DNA of 4,375 nucleotides from the IMG/VR virus record IMGVR_UViG_2537561716_000016. The stretch is one strand, 5' to 3'. Position 1 is the stretch's first letter. Each line of letters starts with the position of its first letter. Of the stretch, positions 3,001 to 4,375 are shown piece by piece. A program made the position numbers. The DNA comes from a virus (lineage: Duplodnaviria > Heunggongvirae > Uroviricota > Caudoviricetes).

Positions 3001-4375
3001 ACGGGTAAAAAGTGGATAAAATAATTTTACCCACCGGATTTTTACCCATGCTCACCGTTAAGCAGATTGAAGCAGCAAAGCCGAAAGAAAAACCATACCG
3101 CCTACTCGATGGTAATGGCCTGTACCTTTATGTCCCTGTATCAGGGAAAAAGGTATGGCAGCTTCGCTACAAGATTGACGGTAAGGAGAAAATCCTGACC
3201 GTCGGAAAATATCCGCTTATGACTTTGCAAGAGGCAAGGGATAAAGCATGGACTGCGAGGAAAGACATCTCGGTTGGCATCGATCCGGTAAAGGCGAAAA
3301 AGGCTTCGTCTAACAACAATTCCTTTAGTGCGATTTACAAGGAATGGTACGAGCATAAGAGGCAAGTCTGGTCAGCCGCCTATGCGACTGAACTTGCAAA
3401 AATGTTTGATGACGACATTTTACCTATCATCGGCGGCCTTGAAATTCAGGATATTGAGCCGATGCAACTGCTGGAAGTAATCCGCAGATTTGAAGATCGC
3501 GGGGCAATGGAGCGAGCCAACAAAGCACGCAGAAGATGCGGCGAGGTTTTCCGTTACGCTATTGTCACCGGAAGGGCTAAATATAACCCGGCACCTGACC
3601 TTGCTGAAGCCATGAAGGGATACCGCAAGAAGAACTTCCCGTTTTTACCTGCCGACCAGATCCCGGCATTCAACAAAGCACTTGCAACATTTTCAGGAAG
3701 TATCGTATCTCTCATTGCGACCAAAGTTTTACGCTACACAGCACTAAGAACGAAAGAGCTTCGTTCCATGCAATGGAAGAACGTCGATTTTGAAAACAGG
3801 ATTATCACCATCGAGGCCAGTGTGATGAAGGGACGCAAGATTCATGTGGTTCCGATGTCGGACCAGGTTGTTGAACTTCTCACTACGCTAAGCTCCATCA
3901 CTAAACCAGTATCAGAGTTTGTTTTTGCCGGGCGCAACGATAAGAAGAAGTCAATCTGTGAGAACGCTGTACTGCTTGTGATCAAACAAATCGGCTATGA
4001 AGGTCTGGAAAGCGGTCACGGATTCAGGCATGAATTCAGCACGATTATGAACGAGCACGAATGGCCTGCTGACGCTATTGAAGTGCAACTAGCACATGCC
4101 AACGGCGGATCTGTGCGTGGGATTTACAACCATGCTCAGTATCTCGATAAGCGCAGAGAAATGATGCAGTGGTGGGCGGACTGGCTTGATGGGAAGGTGG
4201 AGTAGTTATTACAACGATTCTTATAAAAAAGAAAAGCCTTGCACATATAGCAAAGCTTTTCACTTCTCAGGATTTCTTACACCAAGAAACCATCAACAAT
4301 AACAAAATGCAATTATTATATGTTAACTACATATGCATTTCATTAAAACCAATCATAAATGCTTATCATACTTTA

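Follow-up and report, generated by a model that had tools for sequence, protein, structure and literature searches.

In integrases of the heterobivalent lambda type, an Int protomer grips an arm site by its N-domain and a core site by its C-terminal domains. The arm sites of lambda Int (P1, P2, and P'1–P'3) resemble those of the prophage integrase IntS in that they are short repeats in both att arms bound by the N-terminal domain, and in both systems the intasome is built with an excisionase and IHF (PMC2951348, introduction); however, the motif, number, spacing, and orientation of the sites all differ, and the lambda int promoter lies outside attL, so that lambda Int is without autoregulation of the IntS type (PMC2951348). 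IntS has been studied in the KplE1 (CPS-53) prophage of E. coli K-12 (Panis et al. 2007, 2010; PMC2951348). The KplE1 attL has four IntS arm-type sites, P'1 to P'4, each with a TAAA (changed to ATTT in the mutants), and P'1 lies over the −10 box of the intS promoter, PintS (PMC2951348). Footprint or gel-shift evidence of IntS binding, site mutagenesis, and the need of the sites for recombination are credited in PMC2951348 to two other papers (J Biol Chem 2007; Virology 2010), and we give these results as cited there.

The integrase of satellite phage P4 belongs to the same family as IntS (DUF4102/Arm-DNA-bind_3) but has another motif and another tRNA target. As PMC2951348 relates the work of Piazzolla et al. 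(2006), P4 Int represses int from a binding position close to the transcription start of the gene, and its production is lowered by the P4 excision factor as well; in the same account, P4 Vis is proposed to act on mRNA, whereas the target of the KplE1 excision factor, TorI, is DNA close to the −35 box. Phages HK620 and Sf6 (AF335538, AF547987, and X59553) are 97–99% identical to the DNA analyzed here (HK620, 97%); their records hold the attP form, with both arms around one core, whereas our sequence is the attL (prophage) form. The feature described below is already known, its biology having been set out for KplE1, HK620, and P4 between 2001 and 2010.

Organization of the argW–intS locus

The window, by which we mean the whole stretch of 4,375 bases that was analyzed, matches E. 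coli strain 2017C-4109 (O157-type) at 100% identity; there, the genes are annotated as tRNA-Arg and intS. Positions 2996–3100 are base-for-base identical to the attL/PintS region of E. coli K-12 MG1655 (98% over 309 nt), and the matching K-12 locus, likewise annotated as tRNA-Arg and then intS, marks the left boundary (attL) of the cryptic CPS-53/KplE1 prophage. The two loci agree in every base from the −10 region up to nucleotide 50 of intS, they have the tRNA target, the promoter, and the TorI sites in common, and their integrases are 98% identical; the arm sites show no difference, while the host strain differs (2017C-4109, O157-type). Among complete E. coli genomes, the tRNA is present in 5426 of 5426, and 1869 have the intS leader as well.

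The argW gene, encoding tRNA-Arg(CCT) and serving as the integration target of the IntS element, occupies positions 2812–2886 on the + strand (ARAGORN; RefSeq annotation). The attL core, CTGCAGGGGACACCAT, which is the IntS core-type site and crossover region, lies at the argW 3' end (2872–2887, +) and corresponds to the 'attP core' of HK620 (601–616 in the stretch of that record); a 15-mer of this core is repeated at K-12 attR. Downstream are the sites of the excision factor TorI (PMC2951348): I1 and I2 are on the + strand within 2890–2918 (GTTCG at 2894–2898 and GTCCG at 2914–2918; published positions 2464409–2464436), and I3, I4, and I5 (ACAGTTCG, ATGGTTCG, and TCAGATCG) are within 2953–2980 (+; published positions 2464472–2464499). 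The published positions of I3–I5 fall exactly on three 8-mers with 2 nt between them. Since the TorI coordinates of PMC2951348 coincide with GTTCG/GATCG/GTCCG motifs at both 2890–2918 and 2953–2980, they serve as an independent check of the transfer of coordinates from K-12 to the window. TorI repression of PintS goes through I4 and I5 (PMC2951348).

The published elements of PintS, −35 TTGACA and −10 TAAAAA (PMC2951348), are found at 2982–2987 and 3006–3011 (+), and the −35 box is kept in all enterobacterial homologous leaders. A consensus promoter scan gave the pair ATGACG/AATAAT, which had also been predicted in the 1991 Sf6 record. This pair was not adopted, as the mapped transcription starts fit TTGACA-18 nt-TAAAAA, a promoter that the scan missed because its rule demands a T at the last −10 position. 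A weak Shine–Dalgarno element, GGA (3036–3038, +), the ribosome-binding site of Sf6 record X59553, lies 9 nt 5' of the intS ATG, and the CGGA around it is kept in nearly all leaders compared.

Four copies of one motif from the −10 box to the ATG

The initial annotation of this DNA reported a perfect 9-bp direct repeat abutting the start codon of the integrase gene. We found the two exact copies of TTTTACCCA on the + strand, at 3025–3033 and 3040–3048; they are 15 bp apart from start to start, the 6-nt gap between them (CCGGAT) contains the Shine–Dalgarno element, and the second copy has A3048 of the intS ATG as its final base. The direct pair is thus real, but two inverted copies further upstream had been missed. 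The first, GGGTAAAAA (3003–3011, + strand coordinates), is the reverse complement of the repeat and is 100% complementary to 3039–3047; it overlaps the −10 box TAAAAA at 3006–3011 (PMC2951348). The second, GGATAAAA (3014–3021, + strand coordinates), is a 1-mismatch copy that is inverted like GGGTAAAAA. Counting both strands and allowing at most 1 mismatch, four motif copies are clustered within 3002–3048, and the four fit into 46 bp.

We then compared the repeat with 1000 dinucleotide shuffles of the 4375-base window. At least one exact, non-overlapping 9-mer direct pair within 30 nt was present in 27.8% of the shuffles, and the mere presence of a close 9-mer repeat was therefore dropped as evidence. 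The window itself contains a second such pair, TTTCTTGTT at 2146 and 2160 (2146–2168), inside the left-hand integrase gene, which looks like a product of chance. More than two motif copies within 50 nt were seen in 0 of 1000 shuffles (maximum, 2), a test that is post hoc in that the motif itself was taken from the data, and the whole 4375-base window has six motif matches where 1.43 are expected. It is the four-copy cluster, not the lone 9-mer pair, that goes beyond chance.

The intS start codon

The intS gene (3048–4205, +; Pfam and RefSeq annotation) encodes a tyrosine integrase of 385 aa, in which Pfam recognizes an Arm-DNA-bind_3 domain (E = 2.3e-25), a central Phage_int_M domain, and a catalytic Phage_integrase domain. 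In the PDB, residues 87–197 match 2kj8, and residues 2–89 match the solved arm-binding domains 3ju0 and 3jtz. Upstream, GTG 3012 is in frame with intS, and the frame is open, as the initial annotation had pointed out: initiation there would read MDKIILPTGFLPM, adding MDKIILPTGFLP to the protein, and the two repeats would then code for ILP and FLP.

An IntS extended in this way at its N terminus has next to no probability. Primer extension placed the PintS starts at a T and an A, K-12 positions 2464536 and 2464537 (PMC2951348). To carry these over, we took the cloned interval, −223 to +64, or 2464344–2464630, which sets the A of the ATG at 2464567 and equates it with window position 3048; a figure legend of PMC2951348 puts the ATG at '2464.565 kb', and the value from the cloned interval was used instead. 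The starts then fall on T3017 and A3018, with the bases agreeing, and not upstream of 3012. They lie 3' of the GTG, which is therefore outside the PintS mRNA, and for PintS transcripts the GTG start is already refuted. In addition, homologous leaders have ACG or GCG in place of GTG 3012, the Arm-DNA-bind_3 model aligns from its position 1 at residue 2, right after the Met encoded by the ATG, and ATG 3048 is the annotated start in the RefSeq, HK620, and Sf6 records. ATG 3048 is thus supported as the true intS start, by the mapped starts, the Pfam boundary, and the missing GTG in relatives rather than by the repeat, which had been put forward in its favor. The import of the finding is mainly one of correct annotation, with the start of intS fixed at ATG 3048. 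Relative to the start at A3018, the first TTTTACCCA copy is at +8 to +16 and the second at +23 to +31; the inverted copy at 3014–3021 contains both start sites.

The TTTTACCCA copies very probably correspond to arm-type sites P'3 and P'4

The same pair had been read from the sequence as possible integrase arm-type sites, and published work and older records agree with that reading. Between the −10 box and the ATG there are exactly four TAAA-bearing copies (at 3003, 3014, 3025, and 3040), the first of which overlaps TAAAAA. This is the published arrangement, four TAAA sites with the first over the −10 box, so the TTTTACCCA pair would be P'3 (3025–3033) and P'4 (3040–3048), and GGGTAAAAA and GGATAAAA would be P'1 and P'2; the numbering of the pair is by inference from the site count, the motif, and the HK620 annotation. 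The pair sits in the P' arm, with the core at the argW 3' end (2872–2887), the repeats at 3025–3048, and intS from 3048. Both copies are inside the 220-bp attL, whose bounding primers match window positions 2852–2872 and 3048–3071. This 220-bp attL supports excision in vitro (PMC2951348).

The HK620 record, AF335538, has had the TTTTACCCA repeat annotated since 2001. Its 'repeat_region, attP' stretches coincide with P'1 and P'2 (cgggtaaaaagtggataaaata; repeat_region 731–752), with P'3 and P'4 (aattttacccaccggatttttaccca; repeat_region 752–777), and with two copies in the P arm (atgggtaaaatagcgggtaaaat), and the aattttacccaccggatttttaccca stretch stops at the A of the int ATG. In K-12 attR and in HK620 attP, the P arm contains two direct GGGTAAAA copies at a distance of about 70 bp from the core, where both carry TGGGTAAAAtagcGGGTAAAA. 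Taken together, the identity to K-12 attL, the HK620 annotation, the recurrence in the P arm, and the co-variation with the integrase described below make it very probable that the TTTTACCCA copies are the int-proximal IntS arm-type sites P'3/P'4 in the attL P' arm of a CPS-53/KplE1–HK620–Sf6-type prophage at argW. The case also illustrates that integrase arm-type sites can be recognized by a reader from the sequence alone.

Conservation and co-variation of the arm motif

The cluster (3003–3048) hardly varies in a set of 34 distinct close relatives, which differ at 2 of its 46 positions. In the same set, 31 of 95 positions are variable in the TorI-site region, and of the first 300 coding bases 37 are. 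In Klebsiella phage Chronis and Erwinia phage Midgardsormr38 (76–78% DNA identity), the motif is found at all six positions, four in the P' arm and two in the P arm. A different motif occupies these positions in a further group. Salmonella phage Emek (68% DNA identity) has GGGCATA or TTATGCCCA at P1, P2, P'1, P'2, and P'4, and in five chromosomal loci (57–72% integrase identity) GGGCATA/TTATGCCCA replaces GGGTAAA/TTTTACCCA at P'1, P'2, and P'4; these five are prophage (attL) forms, and Emek is the sole attP form, so that the switch in the P arm rests on Emek. P'3 is degenerate in the GGGCATA group. The arm-binding domains of the switched group differ consistently from those of the others, for example in that LLDxNGLYLYVP is changed to LADxGGLFLFVP, WQLRYK to WRLRYR, and LTVGKYP to LVIGPYP. 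Q38 and K42 of IntS, against R and R in the Emek-type integrase, are candidate specificity residues. The arm motif thus co-varies with the IntS arm-binding domain across the retained sites, and the comparative series offers a clean illustration of the co-evolution of binding sites and integrase.

The two direct copies differ in how well they are kept. P'4, beside the start codon, is present throughout the 23 species-level enterobacterial loci, and it turns to TTATGCCCA where the other sites turn to GGGCATA. P'3 is intact at the 15-bp spacing in close and mid-distance relatives and is degenerate or lost in more distant ones. The expectation, voiced when the repeat was first noted, that it would recur in homologous leaders thus holds for P'4 in all 23 enterobacterial loci but fails for P'3 as the distance grows. 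Given this decay, P'3 may be dispensable. In some leaders, 1–2 extra bases separate P'4 from the ATG, and the exact overlap with the ATG is therefore not essential.

More distant integrases (30–38% identity), which come from several phyla (Aeromonas, Synergistaceae, Sulfurovum, Sphingomonas, Ruegeria, and others), carry an 8–12-nt motif peculiar to each locus. The layout, found between −110 and +9 of the integrase start, consists of two direct copies 11–12 bp apart with an inverted copy downstream, and in 9 of 19 distant loci the inverted copy spans the start codon or is no more than about 20 nt away from it (shuffle p ≤ 0.023 for each). Such a layout rule for DUF4102-type integrases could help in the automated annotation of arm sites and att sites.

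Proposed mechanism and alternative explanations

In the mechanism that we propose, the N-terminal arm-binding domain of IntS would recognize a motif of about 9 bp, (T)GGGTAAAA, laid out as four copies from the −10 box to the ATG, two per orientation, and a further pair in the P arm, whether of attR or of attP. With its N-domain on the arm motif and its C-terminal domains on the core at the argW 3' end, IntS would form a bridge, a geometry put forward by likeness to lambda Int. The bridge, in concert with the TorI sites and IHF, would fold the DNA into the intasome for integration and excision. Because the P' arm doubles as promoter and 30-nt leader, IntS occupying the cluster would also repress intS, lowering its expression about 5-fold, an effect traced to P'1 rather than to the TTTTACCCA copies individually. 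IntS does repress PintS about 5-fold, and with single TAAA-to-ATTT mutations in P'2, P'3, or P'4 the repression ratios stay at 4.0–5.2; the authors ascribe repression to the site at the −10 box, P'1 (PMC2951348). The earlier suggestion that the repeats are autoregulatory sites is accordingly true of the cluster as a whole, but the single P'3 or P'4 mutants are still repressed and P'1 is the site implicated.

Three other explanations of the repeat were weighed against the arm-type reading. That it is a chance duplication in an AT-rich leader, without function, would agree with the frequency of exact 9-mer pairs in the shuffled windows and with the other, apparently meaningless pair at 2146/2160; yet the shuffles never yielded a four-copy cluster, the motif is found again in the P arm, it is kept and co-varies across species at 57–98% integrase identity, and in close relatives no other non-coding stretch varies as little as the cluster. 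Chance is already refuted by these comparative data and retains hardly any probability. The TTTTACCCA copies might instead be chiefly an autoregulatory operator that blocks promoter escape or elongation, or ribosome access at the DNA/RNA level, with recombination a secondary role. The 5-fold repression speaks for such an operator, as does the location of both copies in the initially transcribed region just past the starts at 3017/3018; an arm site is near the start codon in every enterobacterial relative examined and in roughly half of the distant ones, and P4 Int, according to the discussion in PMC2951348, autoregulates from comparable positions. Since the single mutants of P'2, P'3, and P'4 keep their repression ratios, and since the motif also occurs in the P arm, a long way from any int promoter, a location that shows recombination to be its primary role, we regard an operator in the first place as unlikely, though it is the strongest of these competitors.

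The inverted sites might also act in RNA, as a hairpin (P'1:P'4 and P'2:P'3) that modulates Int translation in transcripts coming from upstream, for example in the attP form from a cII-dependent promoter 5' of the excisionase gene, with GGA and AUG at the base of the stem. RNA 2998–3062 is predicted to fold into a two-tier hairpin of −15.6 kcal/mol (z = −2.3; 7 of 200 shuffles were as good), the leader that is initiated at PintS is unstructured (−3.9 kcal/mol, z = +1.0), and in the HK620 record a cII-dependent 'phage integration' promoter is marked 5' of attP and int. However, any inverted protein-binding sites yield a hairpin automatically, co-variation does not tell a constraint on RNA from one on a DNA site, relatives whose P'3 is degenerate no longer have the inner stem, and the prediction is a computational one with a modest z-score. 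As inverted protein sites would give the same fold, the hairpin is kept as a rival of low probability, clearly below that of the operator. Between the two in likelihood, and itself rather improbable, is a second layer of control, added to the arm-type function, which could be reflected in the placement of the int-proximal arm site beside or over the start codon in every enterobacterial relative and about half of the distant ones: Int at P'3/P'4 may form a redundant downstream roadblock, or pairing of P'1 with P'4 and of P'2 with P'3 may gate the translation of attP read-through transcripts.

Strain context and other features of the window

The IntS element of strain 2017C-4109 is a P22-like remnant, and a Stx2-type prophage lies on the other side of argW. 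A search of the 12 kb downstream of intS (12093–24341 of the strain 2017C-4109 locus, up to the csc genes) for a second att core, CTGCAGGGGACACCA, with at most 3 mismatches gave no match, and within 12 kb downstream of intS, up to the chromosomal csc sucrose genes, there was no P-arm GGGTAAAA pair. In this strain, the arm sites may therefore be without a recombination partner, and the truncated P22-like IntS prophage is probably unable to excise.

Within 1447–2811, a second integrase gene, whose product has an Arm-DNA-bind_3 domain, reads away from argW (RefSeq TTG start at 2616, − strand) and belongs to a lambdoid prophage that matches Stx2 phage VT2phi_272. Just 5' of its start, three GTAC-centered copies are present within 2626–2672, namely CTGTACAC (2628–2635), CTGTACTC (2652–2659), and ATGTACGC (2663–2670); they look like putative arm-type sites of the left-hand integrase's own. 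The homology to K-12 stops just upstream of the tRNA (at about 2809), which indicates that the prophage junction directly adjoins argW at its 5' end and that the native argW promoter has been replaced by phage DNA. A promoter-like sequence, TTGATT-18-TATTAT, at 2743–2772 (+) could drive argW.

Two further features are in the left part of the window. Positions 1–617 hold the 3' end of an IS3-family (IS1203/IS629) transposase gene, to about 297, which interrupts an MT-A70 methyltransferase gene; a C-terminal fragment of the methyltransferase is at 291–617 (RefSeq annotation of strain 2017C-4109). At 997–1058, a tandem 9-bp repeat, CAGTTCA(A/G)CC, occurs about six times and encodes (PVQ)n in a DUF1627 phage protein (807–1202).
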